DNA of 64,000 nt from Stegostoma tigrinum (Eukaryota): contig NC_081363.1 in NCBI RefSeq assembly GCF_030684315.1, positions 86,904,184-86,968,183 on the forward strand, given 5' to 3'. Shown here piece by piece: positions 1,513-52,177 of the stretch (positions are counted from its first letter, which is position 1; every line of letters starts with the position of its first letter). The translations under genes were made by a program, and so were the position numbers. Below the pieces are notes generated by a model. The model made no database searches. It saw only the letters and a program-made list of their open reading frames with translations, and had not been told where the DNA came from.

Positions 1513-1653
1513 GACAGCAAGATCTGCAGAGTCAGAATCAATAGTGTGGAACAGAGGAATACGGCAGGATCCTGATGAAGCATATAAACCCAAAACACAG
1601 ACTTTCCTGCTCCTCTGATGCCTGAACTTCTGTATTCCTTCATCTCTATTCTT
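1513..1653. mobile_element. Older inverted Penelope 3' end with decayed HHR (ctgatgaag at 1572)
   Basis: TSD ttgatta(t/c)attctgc at 1498-1512 and 1654-1668; - piece followed by + piece. Confidence 0.65.
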
Positions 1654-2393
1654 TTGATTACATTCTGCACCTGTTCATGATCTTTTAATGATCTATGCAC
1701 CTGAACCCCAGGTCTTTTTGGACATCTGCTGTATTTAACTTGCCATCTAGAAAGTACTCTGATCTATCCTTTGAGTCCAAAATGGATAACCTCACACTTC
1801 CAGTGTCTGCCACAGATGTCTGTTCAATTAGTCTATCAATAATGCTTTGTAGTGTAATGCTATCATCTATGCTGCCTACAAGTCACCTAACTTTGTGTCA
1901 TCAGCAAATTTGGACAGATGACTCTCTCTGCCATTATCCATGTCATTAATAAATAATGTATACAAATAAGTCCCTAGCTCAGTTGTTCGTGAACTCCACT
2001 GGATACATCCTGCAAGTTTGACTACTGCACTCAGAACTTGAGAATACTTCCATTGGCATCCTACATACTTAAAACAAGTGTTGCTGTTGAGAGCCCTGTC
2101 AGAGTGTCTTTGAGTAGAGTTCCTTCACTGCTCATTTAGGTGCACTGTTCCATCTTATTTCAAATGGCCAAGGAACCAGTCTGTATTGCTCAAAATAAAA
2201 GACCAACTGATTTGGTTTTACTCTATTTGCATTGATATAGTATTTTCTACTTGGAGTCCTATAGCATGGAAACGGTCCTTCGGTTCAATTCATCCTCACT
2301 GACTAGACAATCAAATCGTTAGTAAATAATGTGAACATTCGAGGTCTTAACACAGTTTCTTGTGGAACATCACTGGTCAAATCATGTCAATTT

Positions 2394-2509
2394 ATAGAAC
2401 ATTACAGCACAGTACAGGCCCTTCGGCCCTCGATGTTGTGCCAACCTGTCATACCGATCTGAAGCCCATCTAACCTACACTGTTCCGTGTACGTCCATAT
2501 GCTTGTCCA
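2394..2509 (-). mobile_element. CR1 3' UTR fragment
   Basis: atagaacattacagcacagtacaggcccttcggccc; nearly identical to 8081-8200 and 30960-31080. Confidence 0.8.
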
Positions 2510-3248
2510 TTATTGAGTACCATTATCCTAACTTAGTGCCCTTATCAAAAGATAGCATAAAAGCACGGCTTGCGTGAACGTAAAGTATTCGCTCAAATTC
2601 TAGAAGAGGTTTGAATATTGAATATTTGGAAAAATTCATTAGAAAAATAGATTCTGAATAAATAAATGCTTGAGATGTGGCCTCATTACGTGCATGTGAA
2701 TGTTCAAGAATGGAAAGTAAACCTTTATTCTCTGCACAGATTGCATCTTTCAGAATATATTTAAAAATACTTTTAATATGAAAGATGCTCCCTCAAGTTA
2801 ATGGCAGAACCAGTGTAAAAGTTTGATTGTGTTAAGTAATTGATGTTATTATCACCTCCAGTTTTATGATTGGTAGTAATTGGTAGAGCTTTCCTATTGG
2901 CCTGTTGGTAATTGATATGCTGAATACCAGTCTGTGCTTCTTCAAATGTGTTAAAGTTAGCAGCTACCTTGAGTACTTTATTTATAATTGAAAACAAAGA
3001 TACAATTTGTGCCTGTCAGATCTGAAAAGTATTCTGTGCTGAATCTTCCATAGCATAACAACCAGCAGAGAGACTTCTTTTTTAAATTTTTAATAAAGAA
3101 CATTTTGAAACTGTCTTTCAAGTTATTGAGTTGCTCTGAAAAACGTTACACTTTTTCATTGACATTTGTTTGTACAATTGCTTTTCTTTATAAACAGTGA
3201 TAGTTTAAACTACTACTGGTACGCTGAGAGTGAACTTTTGTAATTTTA

Positions 3249-3371
3249 GAGATAGTAGGAACTGCCGATGTGGGAGAATCTGAGAACACGATGTGAAGCT
3301 GGATGAACACAGGCCAAGCAGCATCAGAGGAGCAGGAAAGCTGACATTTTGCGTCGAGGCCTTTCTTCAGT
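3249..3371 (-). mobile_element. Penelope 3' end, 5'-truncated at the HHR core
   Basis: 13-bp TSD ttttgtaatttta at 3236-3248 and 3374-3386. Ends in ttcttcag, the reverse complement of CTGAAGAA. Confidence 0.75.
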
Positions 3372-3694
3372 AATTTTGTAATTTTATACTGGTCTCTTTT
3401 TTTTTAATTAAAAACATGTTCTGTAGTGCATATAATAAATGAATAGTTAGGTTGATATCATTTTACTAAATTCAGCAGTTACCTTTTAGTACTGCCCAGC
3501 AATTAATTTCAGTTCATTGTTTCGTTCTTCTAACTCACTGAATCAAATTTTTTGTTTTGGTGCCAAATTCCTACTCTGCCTGCCACTTTGGGCCTTCAGA
3601 ACAAGTCTTGTGATATTAATTGTACGCCGAAAGAATCTCTCAATGTATGTGAATTTGTTTTTTTTGCACTGAGCAGCTGCATTAGCTTAAATTA

Positions 3695-3880
3695 CAAACA
3701 GATGACGTTGGAAGTACACAGCCTGTCAGTCAGCATCTGTTGAGAGAAAGAAAAGTTCAATATTTCAGGTCTGAAACATTAGCTATCATTTTCTCCCTCT
3801 TGGTGCTTGCTAATCAGCAGGGTATTTCCAGCACTTTTGTTTATGTTACAGATTTCTAACCATTTGCAGGATCTGGCTTT
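3695..3880. mobile_element. Old fold-back Penelope 3' end (family 2)
   Basis: Degenerate inverted arms centred on tttcagg/tctgaaa at ~3770; resembles 7593-7812. Confidence 0.5.
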
Positions 3881-4508
3881 CATATAACTGCAGTTTTATG
3901 GTTATCATGTGGGAAACAGAAACGTGGTTATGCCTAATGTTTCCGTGACCTTTCAAATAATGATATTTCCTTAATTTTTTCTATAATAACAAAGATTTTT
4001 CATTGTAACGCTCCCAGGCTTTGTTCTAAATAATGTTACAGTTTAATAACAACAGCACTTTGTATTTACATGTTTCTTTTTATTATGATAAACTTTCTGT
4101 GGTCTTTCAATGGAGTTTTACAGTGTCAAGTGTTTAAGAGCCATCTTCAAACAAAGAAGGAGTTTTGTTTTGTTTATGGGATGTGGCCATGCTGATAAAG
4201 CCAGGGTTACTACTCATCCCTGAATGCTAGCACATTCTCAAATACAAGTTACCTGCTTGCAATGCTGCATTCTTGGTGGTGTTAGGAGCAGTGAGGTTTG
4301 GTTGTAAGCAGCTAAGACCTAGCCTTAAAGGTGAAGGGAATAATTAAAACTAAGGATGTTCACATGAGCATAAATTTTGACGGTTGTGGTGTTGTAGGAG
4401 TTTAGAGATTGGGGAGAGGTTTGGCTATGAGGATTTTGAGAATGATGAGAATTTTAAAAGTGAAATATTGCTTAGCTAGAGGCAATACAGGTCAAGCAGC
4501 ATAATGGT

Positions 4509-4710
4509 AACAAAGTGTGGAGCTGAATGAACACAGCAGGCCAAGCAGCATCTTAGGAGCACAAAAGTTGACGTTCCGGGCCTTTTCTGATAGTCTAGGC
4601 CTGAAATGCCAACTTTTATGCTCGTAAGATGCTGCTTGCCTGCTGTGTTCATCCAGCTCCACACTTTGTCATCTTGGATTCTCCAGCATCTGCAGTTCCC
4701 ATTATCTCTA
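4509..4710. mobile_element. Short fold-back Penelope 3' end (decayed HHR at the turn)
   Basis: Inverted arms around ~4583-4596. TSD cagcataatggt at 4497-4508 and 4713-4724. Confidence 0.8.
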
Positions 4711-4854
4711 ACCAGCATAATGGTGATTAAATGGGACTTCATGAATCCATCAGCATTCATTTACGTCTGGAGTGTTTCATTTAATTTCAGGTGGAAAAAG
4801 CATCCCTTAGTGTTGACTGACAGTCTTGAAAGGTACCTTTTTTCAAAAAAAAAA

Positions 4855-4983
4855 GAACTGAAGAACTGTGGATGCTGGAATTCAGAACAAGAAGGGTCAC
4901 TGGACCTGAAATGTTAACTCTGCTTTCTCTCCACAGAAATTGCCAGACCTGCTGAGATTTTCCAGAAATTTCTGTTCTTGTTT
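4855..4983. mobile_element. Inverted Penelope 3' end (family 2)
   Basis: A - strand terminal piece (aagaactgtggatgctgg) joined to a + strand piece that starts at gaagggtcactggacctgaaatgtt (HHR remnant). Confidence 0.65.
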
Positions 4984-6076
4984 TTCAAAATCTGATGAAG
5001 TAATATTTCAATATTGTCTATAGTTCAGGCTGGCCTTTCGAGTTAGTTCTGGTGGTCTTTTAACTGGAAATAAATAATCAGCACAGCTCTCCAAGTACTA
5101 TTCTGTTAGTTGGAAATAAATGAGAGCTACACCAGGATTTCGAGGAGACCACACCCTCTTGTTTTTGAGATGCTAAATCAGAACTTCTCAAATATGTATT
5201 TTACCTTCAATCTCTGCATTATTCCTACAGGCCTACAAGGTCTAAATTGACCATATGAAGTGTTGGAAAGTGTAACAGTAAGAGCTGTTTCTGCATTTGT
5301 ATCTTCAGTGCTGCAGAATATTGAAAATTGTATGATGATATCATGTGGTCACTGGTCAGCTGATGGCTGGAGTTGATATAACTTGACCCTTTAAACTCAA
5401 TCTAAACAGCACCTACAGTGCAAAAAGTAGTGTGAATTGTTTCTAAACATCACTTAAGCATGGTTGCTTTGCATTATACTGCTTGAATAGATAAGGTAAG
5501 CTTGATTATTTAGTACATGTTATCAGTGGAATACTTCCACATCAAGCAATACTTGTCACCAGCAGAAATACTGATTGTGCTTTCATGAGAATGGCAAATT
5601 TAAAAGCAAAGTTTAATCAGATGAATATGGGTTTTTAAAAGTATTAAGAAATTAGTTATTTTTTGTACATTGTCCATCAAGAAAAACTGTGTTCATTGTA
5701 CCTTTTAGTAAAATTTGCATAAGTTGGTGAAAAAACAATAGTGAACTAATTGGTTGGAGTTCTTGAGTGAATATAATTAAAATAAATAGATTCTTCAAAA
5801 TGCTGAATTGAAATAATTAGGAAGTGCTGATCTCCATGTTTTCTCAATAAATTTCATAAATGCATGTAGATCACATTCCTAAAGATTTCGACTTGCTTAC
5901 ATGAGAAAATATTGTGCTGGACAAGGCCAGCTATTCTATCAAGCCTGTCTCACATTCATCATGGGTAGACCATCTTGGGCATTCCGTTGTTCGTATAATC
6001 TAGTAAAGGCCAACCTATTCTTTCTGAGGTGCTCTGCCCAAAACTGAGGGTGCAACGTAGTCACTGTCCTATGTTT

Positions 6077-10084: not shown

Positions 10085-10214
10085 TGATGTTTTGGGTCAG
10101 GACCCTTCTTCGGAAACTTTCCTGCTCCTCTGGTGCTGACTGGCCTGCTGTGTTCCTCCAGCTCCATACTGTGTTACCTTCTGGCTCCAGCATCTGCAAT
10201 TCTTACTGTCTCTG
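10085..10214. mobile_element. Inverted Penelope 3' end preceded by a (GATGTT)n run
   Basis: A - strand HHR remnant (gacccttcttcgg) joined to the + strand 3' UTR ...cagcatctgcaattcttactgtctct. Confidence 0.65.
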
Positions 10215-10989: not shown

Positions 10990-11690
10990 CAGTGACCAGT
11001 CTCTCTGAGCAGATTTGGACAGCCATTCAGGCTAACAAGAAAGGAATAAGAGAACATCTTTGAGAGTGCTAATTGAAAGATTACAAAAGTGCAGATGCCT
11101 GGCTGTGTATGCTTTTATAGCCTGAGAAGGTATTGGATGGAGATTAGCATAAGAAAATAATGCAATGTTGAAGATAGAAATTGTTAAAGATGGATCATTG
11201 TGTTATGAGACCTAATAATGGCTTGTCAGACAGCTTAACAAGCAAAGGTGGAGTGTATCAGAGACGTATATGTCCTCTAAAGTATTTAATCTGTACATTG
11301 AAGCTATCGTCAGAGATAGGAAATCCTACCAGGTTGTAATGTGGGTTGAATGTTAACAACTTGATTTTCAGAGTTGATACAATGTAGAGCTGGAGGACCA
11401 CAGCAAGTCAGGCAGCATCAGAGGAGCAGGGAATCAACATTTCAGGTTAAAACCTTTCATCAGGATCTGACGCTGCTTGACCTGTGTTCCTCCACCTCCA
11501 CACTGTATTGACTCTGACAGAAGCATCTGCAGTTCTTGCTATTTCCTTGATTTTCACAGATGCCCCTGCACTGACTGACTGAGTCATAAGAGTTGGGATT
11601 TGTAAAACAAACCAAATCAAGGAATGAGGAGCATGGATCAAGAATGTGAAGAGACAACCAAGACACAATGAAGACAAACTGAGGCCTGAC
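10990..11690 (+). mobile_element. Very decayed RTE-like RT fragment (interrupted by Penelope 11374-11545)
   Basis: Remnants resembling QFGFR..KG.RE.IF..R.LIER and GV.Q....S...FNLYIE. Confidence 0.4.
11374..11545. mobile_element. Fold-back Penelope 3' end
   Basis: TSD cttgattttca(g/c)ag at 11360-11373 and 11546-11559. The turn is at ctttcatcag, the reverse complement of CTGATGAAAG. Confidence 0.72.
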
Positions 11691-13672: not shown

Positions 13673-13934
13673 TGATGTTCAGGCACTAATTAGGTTGGAC
13701 TAATTCCTTAAACCCTCATCAAATTGTGTAAAATCAGAGAAGACTGTTGGAATGCTTTCACAGTAAAGTAAGACTTCCTCTTGTATCATGCCTTTCATGA
13801 TATGAGGGTGTTTCCAAGTCCTTTACAGATATTGAGGTGAAAATTTTGCTGTACAGTCACTATTGTAGGGAATGCAACAACAAGTTTCTATAAACTGCAA
13901 TTGGTGGTGATGATGATGACCAAGTAAATCACCT

Positions 13935-13997
13935 CTGTTCATCCAGCTTCACACTTTGTTATCTTGGATTCTCCAGCATCTGCAGTTCCCATTATCC
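13935..13997 (+). mobile_element. Very short Penelope 3' terminus
   Basis: TSD tgaccaagtaa at 13917-13927 and 14002-14012. Confidence 0.7.
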
Positions 13998-25999: not shown

Positions 26000-27235
26000 A
26001 AGAAATAGGAGCAGGACTAAGCTATTCAGTCTGTGTTTGTTCAGCCATTCAAAATAAATCACAACTCATATGGTTATGTGTTTAACTCCACTTTGCTTCC
26101 TGTCCCCATGACCACTGACTTCTTTGTCAGTTAGTTGTGCCTTGAATGTGTATTCAATGACCCAAGTCTCCACTGCTTTTTGACAAACAACATTCCAAAG
26201 GGTATCAACCTCCTGAGAAGAAATTCTTCCTCATTTCCATCTTTAATGGATTGTCCCTTGTTTTATTCTATGCCCCTGGTTCTAGATTTCCTTGAGAGGA
26301 AATATCCTCTCCATCTCTACGCTGTCAAACATTTCAAAATTCTGTTTTCCACTAAGATCAGCATTCTTACTTTAAACCCCAACAATTATACCCCAATTAA
26401 ACCCCAACAATTTAGGCAGTCCTGCTCAAATATTTGGGGCAAACCCCAAATCAACCCAGTGATCCTTCTCCGACTACTTCCAATGGAAGTATTTCTCTCC
26501 TTTTTATCCATGTTATGAATATAGATCATAAATAGTTGAAATTCTAACACTGACCCCCATGGCATACTGTCATACAGTGGCCAATCCTTGATCCTTGCTG
26601 ATACATCACCTCCCAACAGTTTCAGCTCTTTTGCAATAACCTTTTAAGTGGCAACTTCTGGGATGCTTTATTGATAGCCAATTACTCTACATCTACTAGT
26701 TCCCTGTTATCCACCCTGTTACATTCTCAAAGAGCTCAAGTAAATTTGACAAGAACTCTTGGTCCTTTCACAAAACCATGTTGACCCTATTGATTGATTT
26801 TATGATTGTTAACATTATGGTACCACTTCCTGGATGTTGACATTTTCCTAATGACAGATGTCAGACTTAACTGAATTTTCTTCTTTGTTTTTTTATGTCC
26901 ATTTCCATTTGATCAAAAGTGTTACTTTTGCAGCTTTCCAATCCACTGGGGCATTTCTAGAATGTAGGAAATTTTTAAAGATTGCAATTAATGGATAGGT
27001 TATCCCTGAAACCACTTCCTTTGAGACTCCAAAAGCAGAAGTTTGATGTGAGAGACTTATCATTTGTCAGTTTTCCTAGTTGTTGCGATTGTTTTAAGTT
27101 GCTGTTTCGGTTTTGAATGCTGGTTTTCTACAATTCTTAAGATGCTTTTTGCACCACTTACTGTGAAAATAATATACTTGTTCAAAATCTCTGCCATTTC
27201 CCTGTTTACCATTATCCATTTCTCAGTCTTAGACT
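26000..27235 (-). mobile_element. Old CR1 ORF2 with internal deletions
   Basis: 3' UTR gtaagaaataggagcagg; remnants of QHGFVKG and PWGSVL. Confidence 0.7.
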
Positions 27236-27641
27236 CTAAAGTAGCACTTTTACAATAAGCTCGTTTTGTGAGGAGGGATTGGGTATTTATCCAGCTGCAA
27301 GAAACAGTTTAACATTTGCTTAAAATGCCTTAACAAAGGTGAACAAATCATCAGGGTTCGCAGTCAATATGACCCGTGCTGCCGATTCTGCAAACTATGC
27401 TGGTGATGATTCCTTCCCTTTCCAGCCTTCTGATTTCTGCTACTTTTGTACGCAAGGCAAATGGCACTGGGCATACCCTGCAGAATCACGGAATTGCTCC
27501 TGGTAAGGTGGCCTTGGCTCATTTTGATAGCCTGTAAACCACCTCAAAGCTTCTAGGTATTTAATTAGGACTTCTTGAAGATAATAAAATGTGAGGCTGG
27601 ATGAACACAGCAGGCCAAGCAGCATCTCAGGAGCACAAAAG

Positions 27642-27673
27642 CTGACGTTTCGGGCCTAGACCCTTCATCAGAG
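27642..27673 (-). ncRNA. Minimal hammerhead ribozyme motif (mirror copy in the left arm)
   Basis: Exact reverse complement of 28717-28748. Confidence 0.7.
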
Positions 27674-28716
27674 AGGGGGATGGGGGGAGGGAACTGGAAT
27701 AAATAGGGAGAGAGGGGGAGGCGGACCGAAGATGGAGAGTAAAGAAGATAGGTGGGGAGGTAGGGAGGGGATAGGTCAGTCCAGGGAAGACGGACAGGTC
27801 AAGGAGGTGGGATGAGGTTAGTAGGTAGCTTGGGGTGGGAGGAAGGGATGGGTGAGAGGAAGAGCCGGTTAGGGAGGCAGAGACAGGTTGGACTGGTTTT
27901 GGGATGCAGTGGGTGGGGGGGAAGAGCTGTGCTGGTTGTTTGGTGCAGTGGGGGGAGGGGATGAACTGGGCTGGTTTAGGGATGCAGTAGGGGAAGGGGA
28001 GATTTTGAAACTGGTGAAGTCCACATTGATACCATATGGCTGCAGGGTTCCCAGGCGGAATATGAGTTGCTGTTCCTGCAACCTTCGGGTGGCATCATTG
28101 TGGCAGTGCAGGAGGCCCATGATGGACATGTCATCAAGAGAATGGGAGGGGGAGTGGAAATGGTTTGCGACTGGGAGGTGCAGTTGTTTGTTGCGAACTG
28201 AGCAGAGGTGTTCTGCAAAGCGGTCCCCAAGCCTCCGCTTGGTTTCCCCACTGCACTGCCACAATGATGCCACCCGAAGGTTGCAGGAACAGCAACTCAT
28301 ATTCCGCCTGGGAACCCTGCAGCCATATGGTATCAATGTGGACTTCACCAGTTTCAAAATCTCCCCTTCCCCTACTGCATCCCTAAACCAGCCCAGTTCA
28401 TCCCCTCCCCCCACTGCACCAAACAACCAGCACAGCTCTTCCCCCCCCACCCACTGCATCCCAAAACCAGTCCAACCTGTCTCTGCCTCCCTAACCGGCT
28501 CTTCCTCTCACCCATCCCTTCCTCCCACCCCAAGCCGCACCCCCAGCTACCTACTAACCTCATCCCACCTCCTTGACCTGTCCGTCTTCCCTGGACTGAC
28601 CTATCCCCTCCCTACCTCCCCACCTACACCCTCTCCACCTATCTTCTTTACTCTCCATCTTCGGTCCGCCTCCCCCTCTCTCCCTATTTATTCCAGTTCC
28701 CTCCCCCCATCCCCCT

Positions 28717-28748
28717 CTCTGATGAAGGGTCTAGGCCCGAAACGTCAG
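28717..28748 (+). ncRNA. Minimal type-I hammerhead ribozyme motif (Penelope-type)
   Basis: CUGAUGA-A-GGG(UCUAGG)CCC-GAAA-CGUC^AG: complete core, palindromic ACGU stem III, GUC triplet. Stem I is only about 2 bp. Confidence 0.7.
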
Positions 28749-29336
28749 CTTTTGTGCTCCTGAGATGCTGCTTGGCCTGCTGTGTTCATCCAGCCTCACA
28801 TTTTATTATCTTGGAGTCTCCAGCATCTGCAGTTCCCATTATCTCTCTCTCCTTGAAGATAGCTGTTTTATGAATTTTTCTTAACCAATTTTGCTCCGTT
28901 GAGCTTGGACCGGAGCGTTTAACTACAGTTGGTGGTAACTGCATCAACTGCTTCTCATAGCACACAGGAACTGTGGTTGTAGCCTTAATTTGTAATGGTT
29001 CCCTGGTATATGTTCTTGGTCTTGCTGAGAACTTGTGCAAATTTAAGGGTTGGAGTCCAGAGCAAATCTTGTTAAAGGGCTGGTTCTGCAATCGCTGATC
29101 AATTAGCTGTGCTGGTATTAACCTCCATTAGAACTGGGTGACCATTTAACCAGACTTTTATTTTGGTTTGGATTTGGATATTGCTAAGCAATTTAAGTGT
29201 TCCAAATCTCATGTAGGTGGACTTTCCGGGATGTGCGCACTCCTGGATTCCTGGCATTGAGCTTCCTTGTTCAAGTCAGGCCTCATAGGACTCCTTTTGA
29301 GTCCATACTGGCCATACAGTGGTGGTACTACAGTAC

Positions 29337-30244
29337 AGATAGGTGGACAGGCAGGTAATACTGAGGAGGTGGGGAAGCTGCAGAAAGATTTAGACAGTTT
29401 AGGAGAGTGGTCCAGGAAATGGCTGATGAAATTCAATGTGAGTAAATGTGAGGTTTTGCACTTTGGAAAAAAGAATACAGGCATGGACTATTTTCTAAAC
29501 GGTGAGAAAATTCGCAAATCAGAAGTGCAAAGGGATCTGAAAGTGTTGGTCCAGGATTCTCTAAAGGTTAACTTGCAGGTAGAGTCCATAATTAAGAAAG
29601 TGCATGTAATGTTGTAGTTTATCTCGAGGGTTGGAATATAAAAGCAGTGATGTGCTTCTGAGGCTTTATAAAGCTCTAATCAGGCCCCATTTAGAATACT
29701 GTGTCCAATTTTGGGCCCCACACCTCAGGAAGGACATACTAGCCCTGGAGCGTGTCCAGCGGAGATTCACACGGATGATCCCTGGAATGGTAGCTTTAAC
29801 ATATGATGAACGGCTAAGGATCCTGGGATCGTACTTGTTAGAGTTCAGAAGGTTGAGGGGAGATCTAATAGAAACTTACAAGATAATGTATGGTTTAGAA
29901 GGGGTGGACACTAGGAAGTTGTTTCCATTAGGCGGAGAGACTAGGACCCGTGGGCACAGCCTTAAAATTAGAGGGGGTAAATTTAAAACTGAAATGAGAC
30001 AACATTTCTTCAGCCAGAGTGGTGGGCTTGTGGGGTTCATTGCCGCAGAGTGCAGTGGAGGCCGGGACGTTGGATGCCTTCAAGGTAGAGATCGACAAAT
30101 TCTTGATCTCAAAAGGAATCATGGGCTACGGGGAGAGTGCAGGGAAGTGGTGCTGAAATGCCCATCAGCCATGATTTAAATGGCAGAGTGGACTTGATGG
30201 GCCGAATGGCCTGCCTTCTACTCCTATGTCTTATGGTCTTATGG
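29337..30244 (+). mobile_element. Young CR1 3' end
   Basis: ORFs 29267..29617 and 29631..30179 (LQKDLD.L.EW..KWLMKFN; RPHLEYCVQFWAP); terminal tcttatgg repeats. Confidence 0.93.
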
Positions 30245-30357
30245 CTTTTTGGCCCACAGTCTGAACATTTTAGCCATTTTGGCCAAGGCTTAGCTTTGTT
30301 TTAGGGTTTTGCTGTGGGCTGATTGAGGGTCTCTGTATATGTCCTGGATATGTCCTG

Positions 30358-30512
30358 ATGTAGAGGTGCCAGTGTTGGACTGGGGTGAACAAAGCCAGAA
30401 GTCTCACATCACCAGTTTATTTGAAACCACCTGATGAAGGAGCACCGCTCTGAAAGCTTGTGATTTCAAACTAACCTGTTGGACTATAATCTGGTGGTGT
30501 ATGACTTCTGAA
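30358..30512. mobile_element. Inverted Penelope 3' end (family 3) with HHR
   Basis: TSD ggatatgtc(c/t)tg at 30346-30357 and 30515-30526. A - piece (cagaagtctcacatcaccag) faces a + piece (ctggtggtgtatgacttctg). Confidence 0.72.
30428..30462 (+). ncRNA. Minimal hammerhead ribozyme motif (family 3)
   Basis: cac-CUGAUGA-A-GGAGC(ACC)GCUCU-GAAA-GCUU-gug: stem II GGAGC/GCUCU, palindromic AGCU stem III, 3-bp stem I. Confidence 0.6.
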
Positions 30513-30954
30513 CAGGATATGTCTTGCATGAGATTGTGTGCTTGTCTACGCTCAAGTGGTGTTCCCCAAACTCAGTTGAACAGGAGTGCGTCTACTATCA
30601 TTGGGTTACCCTGCAGCTTACGTGCTGCATTTTATAATGGCAAACCAACTGTAGTGTCTGTTTGATGTCCAGTTGGGCTTCAGCCATGTAGGTGCTTTGT
30701 ATGGTTATTCATTCAGGGTTAACCCAAAATTATATGCGTCTTAACCTCGTTAAAAATCCCGACATAGGTTCTCCTGGTTCATGAACTGGCGAGTAAAACC
30801 AATGGTATCTTAGAATTAGAGGATGCTTGGAGTTATAATATTTCTTAACTAAATCCATCAGCTCTTGAAAGGTTTTAGTATCTGGACCCTCAGGGAAAGT
30901 TAGGCTCTGAATAACTGAAAATGCTGCAAGTCTGCAAGCAGTCAGAAGAATTAC

Positions 30955-31123
30955 TTAGAATGTAGAACATTACAGCACAGAACAGGCCCTTCGGCCCTCG
31001 ATGTTGTGCCGACCAGTCATACTGATCTTAAGCCCATCTAACCTACACTATTCCATGTACGCCCATATGCTTGTCCAATGATGACTTAAATGTACCTAAA
31101 GTTGGCGAATCTACTACCATTGC
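30955..31123 (-). mobile_element. CR1 3' UTR fragment
   Basis: Nearly identical to 8081-8243. Confidence 0.85.
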
Positions 31124-31276
31124 TTCTCATTTGCCGGGGAAAAATTCTTCGCACGTGCTGGGCCCAGGATCGAATGAGTCAAACTTCCCAAATGATGCTA
31201 GAAATGCTTACCCAACTCAAAGCCAACTGTTGCGAGTGAACTCCCTTCAGGAGTGTACTGTTCTCTTAGGTTCCAC

Positions 31277-31508
31277 TGAAATAACTTCACAGAGGCCTGT
31301 ATCCTGTCATCAAGTCATCCTTTATTTATATGGCCAGTTATTGGAATCTTACCTCCTGGTTCAGAGCCAGCCCCTAGAAAGAGGAGAGACCCTGAGACTC
31401 CTGTTTATATTTGTCAGCCAGGATTTTCTGCTTGACCCAAGTTAATAGCCCCAACTGGGGAACTCCTGTATATTGAGGTACATGGCCAACTTCGTTCCAG
31501 TCACTGCA
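31277..31508 (-). mobile_element. Solo LTR (copy 1)
   Basis: TG...CA termini; on the - strand a TATA-like atataaa then AATAAA; homologous to 58414-58634. Confidence 0.65.
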
Positions 31509-32229
31509 CTGATGATCAATGTTGAACTTTCTATTGATATTTCTCATGACTGTACTGATATCACTCTTGATTAATGAGCTACTCCGCTCTATCTTAATTT
31601 CTTATCCTTCTTAAATGTTAAAACCTTGCATGTTCAGCTACTATAGAGGTCACTTTACAAATATGTCTTTACAACAGCCAACCTGTTATAATGATTTATT
31701 TTTAATGTACTATCAATTCAGTCATCTGTAAATTCTGAATGCATTTATTTAAAAGGCTTAATCTTTTTAACAATTAAGTCTGTAAATATTATGATTGGAG
31801 TCATTTGTAACTATTCAGATTTCATTTTCATCTTCATTCATTTCAAAGTGTTCTAATTCTGTCTTTTTTTTAATCGTGTATATCCTTAGCTATCATCCAG
31901 AAGGCGCCAGAAATATTAGTTTTGTAGAAAAGTATTGAAGATGTGATAAGTTTTCACTGTGGCATGTTTTGCATTACCTGATCCGGTCCTTTCTAATAGT
32001 AACTGACTCTTACTTAATTCTGATTTTTTTTTTTGTTCTGATCTACTTTTACTGCACTATTTGTGAATGTGCTGCTTGTTGGAATAGCAGCTCATTCCAC
32101 ACTTAATGTATTGGTCTTTGCTTATCCTGCTGTTCAAATATGTACTTTTTCTGCATAATGGTAATGTGCCATGTCGGCTATTTGCAGCAATACGTGTGAA
32201 GAATTAGCCAAATTAATAACAATGCAGTT

Positions 32230-32582
32230 GAATTTCTATTTCCCCTGCTTCTATCCTAAGTTAAGTCCTGTTAAACTGTCATCCCTGTGTTCATTGGCTC
32301 TGTGAAACAATGCTTTAATTTTCAAATTCTGATCAATGTTTTCAAATGGCTGTCCTCCGTTGCTGCAATTTTTTCCAACCTTACAACCCATTCAGGTATG
32401 TGTCTTGGTCTGTTCTGACATCTTCGGCATCCCCAGTTGTAATTGTTCCATCATTTGTGGCTGGACCTTCAGTTGCCAAAGCCCTTAACAATAAAATTCC
32501 ATCCCTATAACTCTCATTCTACCTTTCTTTTCTCCAGAGGAACTCCTTAAAATTTGTTTCTTTGAGCAAGCTTTGGTCTCCA
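32230..32582 (+). mobile_element. Old L2-like 3' fragment (related pieces at ~23340-23550 and ~60230-60610)
   Basis: Shared decayed motifs (tttcaaattct..., ccatcatt.gtgg...ttcagttgcc..., ctccttaaaa...tttgagcaagctttggtc). Confidence 0.5.
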
Positions 32583-33003
32583 CAGTTACAAGAATAAGAT
32601 CAATTTCTGTCTGCTGAAGAAATTTGAAACGGTTGCTGGCTAATGATATTACAAGTAGTTGACCAGAGTAAACCACAACAAGTATTTAAAAAGATTGAAA
32701 TTTGTGGAGCAAATAAGCTCTGCTTTGTATTGGAACATTCCATAAGAGATTTCTGTCCATGCCTGATTTGTAAAACTGTAATTGCAGCAGTTGGACTGGG
32801 CTTACTGCTTAACAACTCTCTCTGGGAAGTAAACAATTTACATTTGTATAGATTAATTCATTAAATCGTAATTCACATAGATTAATTTACACAATATTTA
32901 TTGACTTACAAAGATGTTTTTCCTTCTTGTTGCAAGATTAGTGGATGAGCTGTGCTTCAGAATTTGAAGAATGTACGTTTGTTTCAATCATGTCACTTAG
33001 TAA

Positions 33004-33150
<147 letters not shown>

Positions 33151-40044: not shown

Positions 40045-41462
40045 TTAGGGTGGAATGCTGGCTCGGTGATTAGCACTACCACCTCACAACACCAAGGACC
40101 CCAGGTTTGATTCCACACTCGGGTGACTGTCTGTGTGGAGTTTGCACGTTTTCCTCGTGTCTGCATGAGTTTCCTCCCACAGCCCAAAGATGTGCAGGTT
40201 GGATGATTGGCTATGGGAAACGCAAGTTGCATGGGGTCCAGAGTGTATTAGCTAGATGGATAGATAGCCAGCTGGGCAACAGGAGACACAGTTGTAGTGG
40301 AGGGAGTTCTCAAAATGGAGAACCGTGACCAGTGGTGTTCCACAGGGACCCGTGTTGGGACCACAGTTGTTTGTGATATACATGAATGATCTGGAGGAAG
40401 GCATAGATGGTCTGATTAACAAGTTTGCGGATGACCCTAAGATTGGCCAAGCAGCAGATAGTGAAGGGATTTGTCAAAATGCAGCAGAACATAGATTGGA
40501 AAGTTGGGCAGAGAAGTGGCAGGTGGAGTTCAATCCAGGCAGATGCAAGGTGATGCATTTTGGAAAATCTAATTCAAGAGCAAACTACATGGGAAATGGA
40601 AAAGCCCTGGGGAGAATTGATGCACAGAGAGATCTGGGTGCTCAGGTCCATTGTACCCTGAAGGTGGCAATGCAGGTCAATAGAGTGGTCAGGGCAGCAT
40701 ACAGTATGCTTTCCTTTATTGGATGGGGTATTGAATACAAGAGTTGGCTGGTCATATTACAGTTGCATAGGACTTTGGTTTGATGACATTTGGAATACTG
40801 CATACAGTTCTGGTCGCCACATTACCAAAAGGATGTGGATGCTTTGGAGAGGGTGCAGAGGAGGTTCACCAGGATGTTGCCTGGTATGGAGGACACTAGC
40901 TATGAAGAAAGGTTGAGTAGATTAAAGATTATTTACATTAGAAAGATAGGTTGAGGGGTGATCTAATTGAGGTCTACAAAATCATGAGAGGTATAGACAA
41001 GGTGGATAGCAAGAAGCTTTTTCCCCCAGAGTGAGGGACTCCATTACTAGAGGTCACAATTTCAAGGTGAGAGGGGAAAAGGTTAAGGGAGATGTGCATG
41101 GAAAATTCTTTATGCAGAGGGTGGTAGGTGCCTGGAACGTGTTGCCAGTGGAGGTGGTAGATAGCGGGCATGATAGCGTTATTTCAGATGTATCTAGGCA
41201 GGTAGATGAATGGGCAGGGAGCAGAGGGATACAAATCCTAGGAAAATAGGTGACAGGTTTAGATAGAGGATCTGGATCAACGCAGGCTCGGAGGGCTGAA
41301 GGGCCTGTTCCTGAGCTGTAATTTTCTTTTGTTCTTTGTTCTTGTTTCTTTGTTACAGGAATTGGGTAGGGGTGTTGGTATGGGTGGGATGGTCTTCAAA
41401 GCGTCGGTGTGGACTCAATGGGCCAAATGGCCTGCTTCCACACTGCAGGGATTCTATGATTG
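40045..41462 (+). mobile_element. HE1/V-SINE-like element (40045-40230 and 41354-41462) split by an inner CR1
   Basis: Head tggctcggtgattagcactacc...ggtttgattcc; tail ggcctgcttccacactgcagggattctatgatt. Confidence 0.8.
40230..41353 (+). mobile_element. CR1 (inner) 3' portion
   Basis: ORF 40325..40783 SGVPQGPVLGP...KFADD; terminal (ttctttg)n. Confidence 0.92.
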
Positions 41463-42334: not shown

Positions 42335-42384
42335 TACACCTTATTATCTCAGATTCTCCAGCATCTGCAGTTCCTACTATCTCT
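42335..42384 (+). mobile_element. Very short Penelope 3' terminus
   Basis: TSD ctgaa(t/c)atgact at 42322-42333 and 42383-42394. Confidence 0.65.
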
Positions 42385-49402: not shown

Positions 49403-52177
49403 GGATTCAGAACTGGCTGACCCTTAGAAGACAAAGGGTGGTAGTGGACGGAAAATATTTGACATGGTGCTCAGTTACGAGTGGTGTACCACAAGGTTTT
49501 TTTTGGGTCCTGTTCTGTTTGTGATTTTTGTAAATTATGTGAATGTAGGAGTGGAAGGGTGGATTAGTAAGTTCACGGACAATACATAGGTGAGTGGCGT
49601 TGTAGACAGTGCAGAGGGCTGTTCTAGGACACACAGAGACATTGACAAAATGCAGAGCTGGGCTGAGAAGTGGCAGATGGAGTTTAACCCTGAAAAGTGT
49701 GAGGTGATTCATTTTGGAAGGACAAAGTTGAAAGCAGAATACAGGGTTAACGGAAAGATTTTTGACAGTGTGGAGGGCCCAAGGGATCTTGGGGTTCATG
49801 TTCACAGTTCCTGAACGCTTCCACCCAGGTGTATAGAGTTTTTCAGAAGGTTTGAAGTTTTTAAGACGGATGTTGGGGTTAGGGATAGATGTTTGCTTAG
49901 TCTAGGTCAAGTTGACATAAGGAAGGAGGAAGTGTAAGGTATCCTAAAAGACATTAAGGCGGACAAGTCCCCAGGTCCGGATGGGATCTATCCCATGTTA
50001 CTGAGGGAAGCGAGAGAGGAAATAGCCGGGGTCCTAACAGATATCTTTGCAGTGTCCGTAGACACGGGTGAGGTCCCAGAGGCCTGGAGACTTGCTAATG
50101 TTGTCCCCTTTTTTAAAAAGGGCGGCAAGGGTAATCCAGATAATTATCGACCGGTGAGCCTGACGTCAGTGGTAGGGAAGCTACTGGAGAAGATACTGAG
50201 GGATAGGATCTATTCCCATTTGGAAGAGAATGGGCTTATCAGTGATAGGCAACATGGTTTTGTACAGGGAAGGTCATGTCTTACCAACTTAATAGAATTC
50301 TTGGAGGACATGACAAAGTTGATTGAGGGAAAGGCTGTAGATGTCATATACATGGACTTCAGTAAGGCATTTGATTAGGTTCCCCATGGCAGGCTGATGG
50401 AGAAAGTGAAGTCACATGGGGTCCAGGGTGTGCTAGCTGGATGGATAAAAAACTGGCTGGGCACAGGAGACAGAGGGTAGTAGTAGAAGGGAGTTTCTCA
50501 AATTGGAGACCTGTAACCAGTGGTGTTCCACAGGGATCTGTGCTGGGACCACTGTTGTTTGTGATATATGTAAATGAACTGGAGGAAGGTGTAGGTGGTC
50601 TGATCAGCAAGTTTGCTGATGACACTAAGATTGTTGGAGTAGCTGATAGTGAAGGGGACTGTCAGAGATTACAGCAGAATATAGACAGACTGGGGAGTTG
50701 GGAAGATAAATGGCAGATGGAATTCAATCTGGGCAAATGCAAGGTGATGCATTTTAGAAGATCAAATTCAAGGGTGAACTATACAGTAAATGGAAACGTC
50801 CTAGGGAAAATTGATGAACAGAGAGATCTGGGTGTTCGGGTCCATTGTTCCCTGAAGGTGACAATGCAGGTCAATAGGATGGTCAAGAAGGCATATGGCA
50901 TGCTTTCCTTCATTGGACAGGGTATTGAGTACAAGATTTGGCAGGTCATGTTGCAGTTGTATAGGACTTTGGTTCGGTCACATTTGGAGTACTGTGTACA
51001 GTTCTGGTCGCCACATTACCGAAAGGATGTGGATGCTTTGGAGAGGGTGCAGAGGAGGTTCACCAGGATGTTGCCTGGTATGGAGGGTAATAGCTATGAA
51101 GAGAGGTTGAGTAGATTAGGATTCTTTTCATTAGAAAAATGGAGATTGAGGGGGAACCTGATTTGAGGTCTACAAAATCATGAGGGGTATTGACAGGGTG
51201 GATAGCAAAAAGCTTTTTCCCCAGAGTGGGGGACTCAGTTACTAGGGGTGATGAGTTCAAAGTGAGAGGAGGAAAGTTTAAGGGAGATATGCGTTATGAG
51301 AGTGTTCTTTACACAGAGGATGGTGGGTGCCTGGAACGCGTTGCCAGCGGAGGTGGTAGACGCAGACACGTTAGCGTCTTTTAAGATACATTTGGACAGG
51401 TACATGGATGGGCAGGGAGCAAATGGACACAGACCGTTAGAAAATAGATGACAAGTTAGACAGAGGATCTTGATCGGCGCAGGCTTGGAGGGCCGAAGGG
51501 CCTGTTCCTGTGCTGTAGGTTTCTTTGTTTCTCTGTTTCCCCTTGTTTCTTTGTTTAAGATGTGTTAGCTTTCGTTAATTGAGGGATTGAGTTCAAGAGC
51601 TGTGAAGTTATGTACCAGCTATACAAAAGCCTGTTTCGGCCACATCTGGAGTACTGTGTCTAGTTCTGGCCACCTCATTACAGGAAAGATGTAGAGGCAT
51701 TAGAAAAGGTGCAGAGGAGATTTACCAGGATGTTGCCTGGAATTGAGGGAGCGTCTCACGAGGGAAGGTTGAGAGCGCTCGGGCTTTTCTCTTGAGAACG
51801 ACTGGATGAGAGGTGACTTGATAGAGGTGTACAAAATGATCAGAGGTATAGATAGAGTGGACAGCCAGGGCCTTTTTCCTAGGGTGGAGGTGGCTATTAT
51901 TAGGGGGCATAGTATTAAAGTGAGTGGAGGTAGATATAGGGGAGACGTCAGATGTAGGCTCTTCACTCGAGAGTGGTAGGAGCGTGGAATGCATTGCCGG
52001 AAAGGTAAGTGGAGTCTGCCTCATTAGGGGCATTTAAGTGGCTAATTAGATAGGCACGTGGATGATAATATACGGTTGGGGTGGAGGTTAGATTGACCTT
52101 AGAGTTCGGGTAAAAGTTGGGCGCAACGTTGTGGGCCGAAGTCTGTACTGTTCTATGTTCAATGTCCTGTACTATGT
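49403..52177 (+). mobile_element. CR1 (outer; 49403-49850 and 51557-52177)
   Basis: ORF 49590..49814 WAEKWQMEFNPEKCEV. Collinear continuation after 51556 (LAF.N.GIEFKS...RPHLEYCV.FWPPH). Confidence 0.88.
49853..51556 (+). mobile_element. Young CR1 (inner), 1.7 kb of ORF2 RT + 3' UTR
   Basis: ORFs 49995..50378 and 50441..51166 (NYRPVSLTS, GVPQGSVLGPLLF, FADDTK); (tttctttg)n end. Confidence 0.95.

Follow-up and report, generated by a model that had tools for sequence, protein, structure and literature searches.

Endonuclease-bearing (EN+) Penelope-like elements (PLEs) of the Neptune/Nematis type possess a single reading frame for a reverse transcriptase (RT) together with a GIY-YIG endonuclease at the C-terminus, form partial tandems with pseudo-LTRs (pLTRs) that contain a hammerhead, and are flanked by a target-site duplication (TSD) (PMC8557442; PMC3846280; these sources, like the others below, in their available portions). 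A CX2-5CxxC motif in the RT–EN linker defines the Neptune/Nematis clades (PMC8557442). The published layout of PLEs includes an inverted, 5'-truncated copy adjoining the 5' end and a tail of 30–40 bp at one end (PMC8557442; PMC3846280), while features of the cycle are described as 'still undefined' (PMC8557442) and an antisense template has been proposed (PMC3846280). In the case of PAc, the Poseidon element of Anolis, the lizard protein cleaves and extends both strands in vitro from two start sites that bound the tail, initiates without homology and is predicted to be a dimer (PMC11167929); a term search of the available text found no discussion of inverted insertions or microhomology. The family described here shares all the structural features listed for the Neptune/Nematis elements and shows no structural difference from them as described in those portions; its inverted arm often reaches 0.5–2 kb into the ORF.

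The twin-priming model of LINE-1 (L1) 5' inversion reportedly goes back to an original paper of 2001. In L1 twin priming, as given in the available text of bioRxiv 10.1101/2024.12.14.628481, priming by the second target end takes place at an internal site of the same RNA, after which the products are joined head-to-head; the two cDNAs copy non-overlapping parts of the RNA, one of them from the poly(A).

The window, namely the whole 64,000-nucleotide stretch of Stegostoma tigrinum DNA analysed here, contains a ~1.3-kb palindrome in an intron of TTBK2, with the following features:

17899–18003, + strand: upstream TTBK2 kinase exon (DFG)
27574–27583, + strand: left copy of the TSD, 10 bp, CTTGAAGATA, whose last 6 nt (27578–27583) match the element too
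27578–28250, - strand: tail-less, longer arm, including the 139-nt unpaired spacer
27644–27671, - strand: minimal hammerhead core of the left arm, the mirror of 28719–28746
28112–28250, - strand: spacer, i.e. the extra 5' reach of the tail-less arm
28251–28846, + strand: tailed, shorter arm
28719–28746, + strand: minimal hammerhead core of the right arm, with CUGAUGA, a bulged A, GAAA, a palindromic ACGU and the GUC site
28813–28846, + strand: Penelope-type tail, 34 nt, on the right arm only
28847–28851, + strand: 5 extra nt that lengthen a CT repeat, between tail and target
28852–28861, + strand: right copy of the TSD, CTTGAAGATA
33058–33123, + strand: downstream TTBK2 kinase exon (GTVRY)

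This palindrome is genuine. Between the arms (27578–28111 and 28251–28812), 534 of 534 aligned bases match, with no substitutions and three gaps: 15 nt (right-arm 28620–28634), 12 nt (right-arm 28533–28544) and one homopolymer C (right-arm 28441) are absent from the left arm. The tail-less arm contains the C-terminal part of the GIY-YIG endonuclease frame, the 3' region and the hammerhead motif. On the - strand, the endonuclease frame runs on through the spacer; the truncation of the element falls immediately past the GIY-YIG motif, so that the motif itself is missing. The junction between the spacer and the tailed arm (28250/28251) is blunt, without microhomology, and the 5 extra nucleotides beyond the tail would reflect slippage at priming. 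The first-pass annotation had correctly described the near-perfect arms with left-arm deletions of 15 and 12 bp and a homopolymer difference of 1 bp, the coding spacer, the ~34 nt confined to the right arm and the 6-nt overlap of the TSD with the left arm; its single insertion event, with the 3' end copied twice, is likewise supported. Its placement in TTBK2 also holds, since the + strand exon scores 69 bits against TTBK2 in the PDB vs 55 bits against TTBK1; the palindrome-bearing intron spans 15 kb (18004–33057). The window copy is ~97% identical to a sister copy, L115. The TTBK2-locus palindrome represents a Penelope-like retrotransposon of the endonuclease-bearing type that inserted recently, head-to-head and with its 5' part truncated.

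Contigs from short reads span the palindrome's left junction in both samples examined and its right junction in one of the two (none in S2); on the element side they reach 24–25 nt, under the 31-letter bridging threshold. For three other individuals, bisulfite runs exist that could yield the methylation of the family. The short bridging and the missing right-junction contig in S2 would suit an artefact of assembly, or a single insertion whose DNA was rearranged later. Such an origin is scarcely credible, as the arms differ by three indels and the tail, the TSD encloses both, junction contigs exist, and dozens of loci, whose TSDs all differ, show the layout again. An empty-site allele was not seen in the contigs of the two samples or in a second organism, where the layouts are swamped by repeats and holes prove nothing.

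Two other identities were rejected. A MITE or terminal-inverted-repeat DNA transposon does not agree with asymmetric ends, arm lengths from ~65 bp to 3 kb and the lack of fixed symmetric termini. The two left-arm deletions do not mark a separate subfamily: among the 40 matches listed, no second copy carries both and the 12-nt deletion alone recurs in 10, and each of the two deletions (12 nt and 15 nt) recurs alone elsewhere.

Elsewhere in the window, older short head-to-head insertions of the same Penelope family are situated at 21077–21282, 4508–4709, 16577–16692 and 11377–11535, each, by eye, with one tailed arm and a flanking duplication of 12–17 bp. Lone short copies of the 3' end, 75–92% identical, lie at 1224–1341, 3248–3370, 10117–10213, 13933–13996, 23256–23332 and 42341–42384. 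Meanwhile, fragments of a LINE reverse transcriptase frame, which we take to be of CR1 type, are found at 29261–30179, 40298–40783 and 49938–51166; the LINE fragments of the window form dispersed inverted pairs (~75%).

The Penelope-like identity proposed at first sight is supported by the RT and GIY-YIG domains, the pLTR and the tail of the sister copies. In L115, a 166-bp direct repeat (pLTR) at both ends accompanies a frame of 1075 residues, and pLTRs from partial tandems also exist in L114, L121 and L122; these four (L115 at 1571–5363, - strand) are full-length or tandem copies. In Pfam searches, RVT_1 is followed by GIY-YIG within one ORF in both L115 (1075 aa; E 2.5e-5 and 0.009, respectively) and L125 (E 3.6e-4 and 0.002), all below the curated cut-offs. 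In both L041 and L115, the GIY-YIG motif is preceded by a C-x4-C-x2-C linker. The family is an EN+ Penelope-like element, apparently of the Neptune/Nematis type, as judged by this linker motif. In the full-length copies an AUG lies within the hammerhead core, as in PAc (PMC11167929), and opens a frame of just 13 codons. In L148 and L134, past position 1707, the tail directly abuts another 5'-truncated sense copy with the same element start, forming a partial tandem.

An unedited 35-mer from the endonuclease region has 25,612 exact matches in the genome, corresponding to more than 25,000 arms; among the first 100 matches listed, neighbours within 4 kb are head-to-head in 18 cases, tail-to-tail in 1 and tandem in 2. 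Simple head-to-head pairs were found at 23 of 30 loci sampled with a tail-independent query, exactly one arm being tailed in 23/23, and head-to-head pairs in 26 of 40 young copies of a second sample; the sister samples are the top matches by identity and hence biased to young copies. The head-to-head, one-tailed layout is the normal, majority product of the family among young copies. The rarity first implied for the palindrome is thus not supported, the layout being both published for PLEs and the majority form here.

At the outer ends, 42 of 44 inverted loci have one tailed and one tail-less arm, and two tails are present in L108 and L122. Among 15 further pairs, four of which have an outer end beyond the sequence examined, two tails are present in L130 and L143, neither with a TSD by eye. 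In L108, L130 and L143, all head-to-head, each arm has a tail and a target duplication cannot be seen; such two-tailed pairs may arise by another route. For the TSD statistics (n = 38), six of the 44 loci were dropped, namely L032 and L055 with an imperfect or ambiguous TSD and the complex L108, L118, L121 and L122. The TSD measures 10–19 bp, with a median of 14. The tail-less arm overlaps it by a mean of 2.03 nt, vs 0.67 when shuffled among loci (0/5000) and 0.36 at random host sites; microhomology of at least 2 nt exists at 25 of the 38 tail-less ends and none at 8. Furthermore, a T is found three bases 3' of the presumed nick at both boundaries (24/38 and 25/38; p about 1e-5, uncorrected, with an assumed background of 29%), the pattern expected from two like cuts. 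By their polarity, each of the two arms has one target 3' end as its primer.

The central junctions were compared in 40 pairs (leaving out L108, L118, L121 and L122; where exact extension stopped at a nearby change, the BLAST boundary was used for some ends). The longer arm is the tail-less one in 19 and the tailed one in 20, and the arms are equal in 1. The arm ends lie no more than 40 nt apart in 12 of the 40 vs 1.6 expected (0/100,000); among the 15 new pairs, the same distance holds in 5 vs 2.3 (p = 0.045) and one of 15 nt or less in 4 vs 1.0 (p = 0.008). Coinciding arm ends sit at a different element position at each locus. The 34 central junctions that could be resolved (10 more could not) comprise 5 with microhomology of at least 2 nt, 10 with 1 nt, 6 that are blunt and 13 with inserted bases, a pattern that resembles end joining or template jumping more than self-priming. 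At the TTBK2 locus, the shorter arm is the tailed one and the spacer forms part of the tail-less arm, which excludes a simple fold-back of the tailed cDNA; such a fold-back cannot make the tail-less-longer class (19/40 pairs, including the TTBK2 locus).

The lizard Penelope has been named as a massively edited repeat (PMC5625713), and the same is said for frog (PMC10636886); upstream G depletion is the common ADAR mark, and an A-preferring group has been described (PMC5625713). The present family displays the same clustered A-to-G changes with upstream G depletion, but the edits in the available portions of those sources are RNA reads, whereas here they are fixed in genomic copies and common to both arms. 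Clusters of sense-strand A>G without private T>C occur in 3 of 98 loci sampled regardless of editing, A>G accounting for 31/32 private changes in L050, 16/17 in L102 and 13/18 in L099. A search in which a single A of the pattern was set to G returned 58 matches and led to 11 more hyper-edited loci; its matches with two changes at 85–96% identity are mostly older subfamily variants, not edited copies. The 14 sense A>G hypermutated loci (L050, L099, L102, L207, L209–L217 and L220) carry up to 55 changes per arm, and in one example 54 of 60 private changes are A>G. In the 14 arms (425 edited and 1028 unedited A), the edited fraction is 0.44 after A, 0.44 after U, 0.23 after C and 0.16 after G, the depletion of a 5' G relative to A and U being marked (p = 3e-6); there is no preference for a 3' G in these arms (0.26, p = 0.25), and a 3' A is slightly enriched (p = 0.03). 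Strand, clustering and context indicate that ADAR likely made these clusters.

At 71 informative sites across 39 pairs, the minor letter is common to the two arms in 89 of 140 cases, vs 12% when shuffled. In seven edited pairs, 151 of 167 changes are common to both arms (54/55, 37/37, 26/27, 4/4, 20/30, 8/9 and 2/5), vs 808/3847 (21%) between loci. In L210, the tail-less arm is longer by ~1.7 kb and all 37 changes are shared, and for the edited motif of L099 the genome contains exactly two matches, one in each arm. The arms at the TTBK2 locus contain no private A>G. This sharing suggests that both arms were copied from one sense RNA per insertion. Discordant A>G between arms was rejected as proof of two passes: CpG decay explains the three sites checked by eye because each follows C.

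The arms of L054 disagree at 9/9 informative sites, and those of L209 and L220 differ in their 3' parts. This discordance, together with the predicted dimer of the lizard protein (PMC11167929), would suit a protein dimer that brings two RNAs, one per nick, the likeness of the arms then stemming from one source locus or gene conversion. Two RNAs should, however, be edited independently, yet the 151 of 167 edits are shared over up to 1.5 kb; the equal arm ends at positions that differ between loci and the one-tail rule (23/23) also argue against this reading, which is improbable. In L054 (2414–3156), L209 and L220, one arm changes midway to the haplotype of another subfamily, by template switch or gene conversion.

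The mirror (antisense) search gave 15 matches and revealed T>C clusters at two loci, in each case within internal inverted pieces. As the sense pattern has 11 free positions and the antisense one 5, the raw 58 vs 15 is not usable as a test. One case is L194 (932–3035) with L195 (1–2123), with T>C 6/7 in both arms, and the other L244 (2378–3013), with T>C 20/22. At L194/195, ~420 bp of non-element sequence is duplicated in both arms; this locus is possibly a retrotransposed transcript of an older inverted insertion plus flank. The T>C pieces at both loci fit transcripts of older inverted insertions, but demonstrate that antisense-oriented sequence is copyable. T>C flags on L224, L229 and L191 were discarded as old diverged pieces. 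For rotifer elements, an antisense transcript that primes itself was proposed to give the head-to-head form (PMC3846280), and the T>C pieces at two loci would speak for such a route. They are, however, internal inverted passengers that fit a transcript ending in the sense tail, and sense-strand A>G is found in 14/14 hyper-edited main arms; junction pairing is scarce, and the microhomology at the target end points to target priming. An antisense template is very improbable in this family. Template-strand evidence from edited copies, as used here, was not found in the available portions of PMC8557442 and PMC3846280. Among the papers listed in the literature search, most subscription journals lying outside its scope, none deals with twin priming in PLEs or with edited genomic PLE copies, and a prior mention of either is possible.

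We consider it rather probable that both nicked target strands primed reverse transcription on one sense RNA and that the two cDNA ends were then joined. The endonuclease would make two staggered nicks separated by ~14 nt, the length of the TSD. One target 3' end would prime at the end of the RNA tail, and the other ~34 nt further in through a few paired bases, consistent with the microhomology at the tail-less ends. Both primers would be extended on the same RNA, to which the shared edits point, and the trailing strand would displace the leading cDNA. The cDNA 3' ends would be joined directly or with a few added bases, as the blunt and base-bearing junctions suggest, and the second strands filled in. 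Read-through transcripts of the palindrome could then fold into long hairpins as the presumed dsRNA source for ADAR, and some edited RNAs would be reinserted, giving the edited genomic copies observed. Of the two routes first put forward, cDNA fold-back or double priming, the latter is favoured, and the former falls at this locus in its simple, tailed-cDNA form.

Similar to L1 twin priming (bioRxiv 10.1101/2024.12.14.628481), the second target end would prime internally on the same RNA with a head-to-head join, and the microhomology of the L1 type is present (2.03 vs 0.67 nt, n = 38). Compared with L1, the start sites are only ~34 nt apart and the copies overlap almost fully, resulting in a palindrome; the TTBK2-locus arms overlap over 534 bp and have no poly(A) start, unlike the non-overlapping cDNAs of L1. 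As in PAc (PMC11167929), both strands would be cleaved and extended, with two start sites bounding the tail, but each insertion of the present family uses one start site per strand. PAc initiates without homology and, in the available text, offers no account of inverted arms (PMC11167929), whereas 25/38 ends here have at least 2 nt of homology.

The main rival to two passes on one RNA is a fold-back in which both nicks prime but only one cDNA grows, folds or jumps back, copies itself and meets the short cDNA. The shared edits are compatible both with two passes over the RNA and with a single pass after which the first cDNA is itself copied, and they could also have been homogenised by gene conversion from arm to arm. 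Such a fold-back accounts for edits that are identical between the arms, for the surplus of near-zero loops and for the private variants common to both arms in about 10/39 pairs; the two-tailed, TSD-less L143, whose arm ends are equal, also speaks for it. A 4-nt duplication of L032 is confined to its two arms (with 40 of the 507 candidates scored); it is consistent with cDNA copying or conversion and speaks against two passes. On the other side, pairing is scarce at the central junctions (at least 2 nt in 5/34), and at the TTBK2 locus the longer arm, the would-be template, has two deletions absent from the shorter, with no substitutions. Two passes are favoured there because copying the long-arm cDNA would have transmitted the deletions, unless they arose later; they could indeed be later slippage, which would count against two passes. 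On balance, the fold-back is unlikely, although it deserves serious weight, and double priming on one sense RNA is retained as the preferred reading.

Within the pre-mRNA of TTBK2, a single hairpin (-1260 kcal/mol) comprising the entire element is predicted, separated from the splice sites by 9.6 kb and 4.2 kb. The ~530-bp dsRNA hairpin envisaged in the first-pass annotation is therefore upheld as a prediction; ADAR-like editing has left genomic fossils at the family level, but not in the arms of the locus itself, which lack private A>G, and any role of this hairpin as an ADAR or Dicer substrate is putative. The predicted hairpin pairs the hammerhead motif along its entire length; therefore, with the motif buried, the host transcript is unlikely to be cleaved. 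The most likely role of the insertion in TTBK2 is that of a neutral passenger within the intron.

A descriptor scan of the hammerhead found the conserved core, helix II (4–5 bp with the bulged base) and the palindromic helix III, the same core, bulged base before helix II and palindromic helix III as in the minimal hammerheads of metazoan PLEs (PMC4209133). Helix I has only 2 bp, short of the 4–5 bp of the minimal hammerhead; it resembles that described for D. virilis, unlike the 4–5 bp of the Schistosoma families (PMC4209133), and 2 bp are also found in 129 of 160 family motifs scanned. Opposite-strand pairs 100–700 bp apart, as in the window palindrome, were previously reported in Schistosoma (PMC4209133). 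Rfam gave no match at the gathering score in the whole 64-kb window and none at E ≤ 10 in 27400–29000, and the hammerhead region folded alone showed no signal over shuffles (z 0.1–0.8). Only one sense copy exists in any single transcript of the palindrome, and minimal hammerheads of this sort cleave weakly and as dimers (PMC4209133). Where a ribozyme had been claimed on each strand, the core motif does stand on both arms, but as a minimal motif only, whose self-cleavage is putative.

The TTBK2-locus insertion is real, young and ordinary, and its element is of a kind already known; what makes the family interesting is its edited pairs. These pairs argue for one sense RNA, are countable genome-wide without bench cost, and make the family a natural experiment on how PLEs form inverted, one-tailed insertions. 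More generally, PLEs may copy one RNA twice with two enzymes a tail length apart, one target nick serving as primer for each, so that their insertions are mostly born palindromic and feed ADAR, and edited RNA re-enters the germline; this generalisation is tentative, and we place it slightly short of an even chance. If true, the edits would tag single molecules like natural barcodes, establishing which strand is the template and how many templates there are in the transposition cycle. The family, with more than 25,000 arms reaching the endonuclease region, many of them head-to-head, is likely a major source of intronic dsRNA in Stegostoma tigrinum and a likely route from RNA editing to heritable DNA change.
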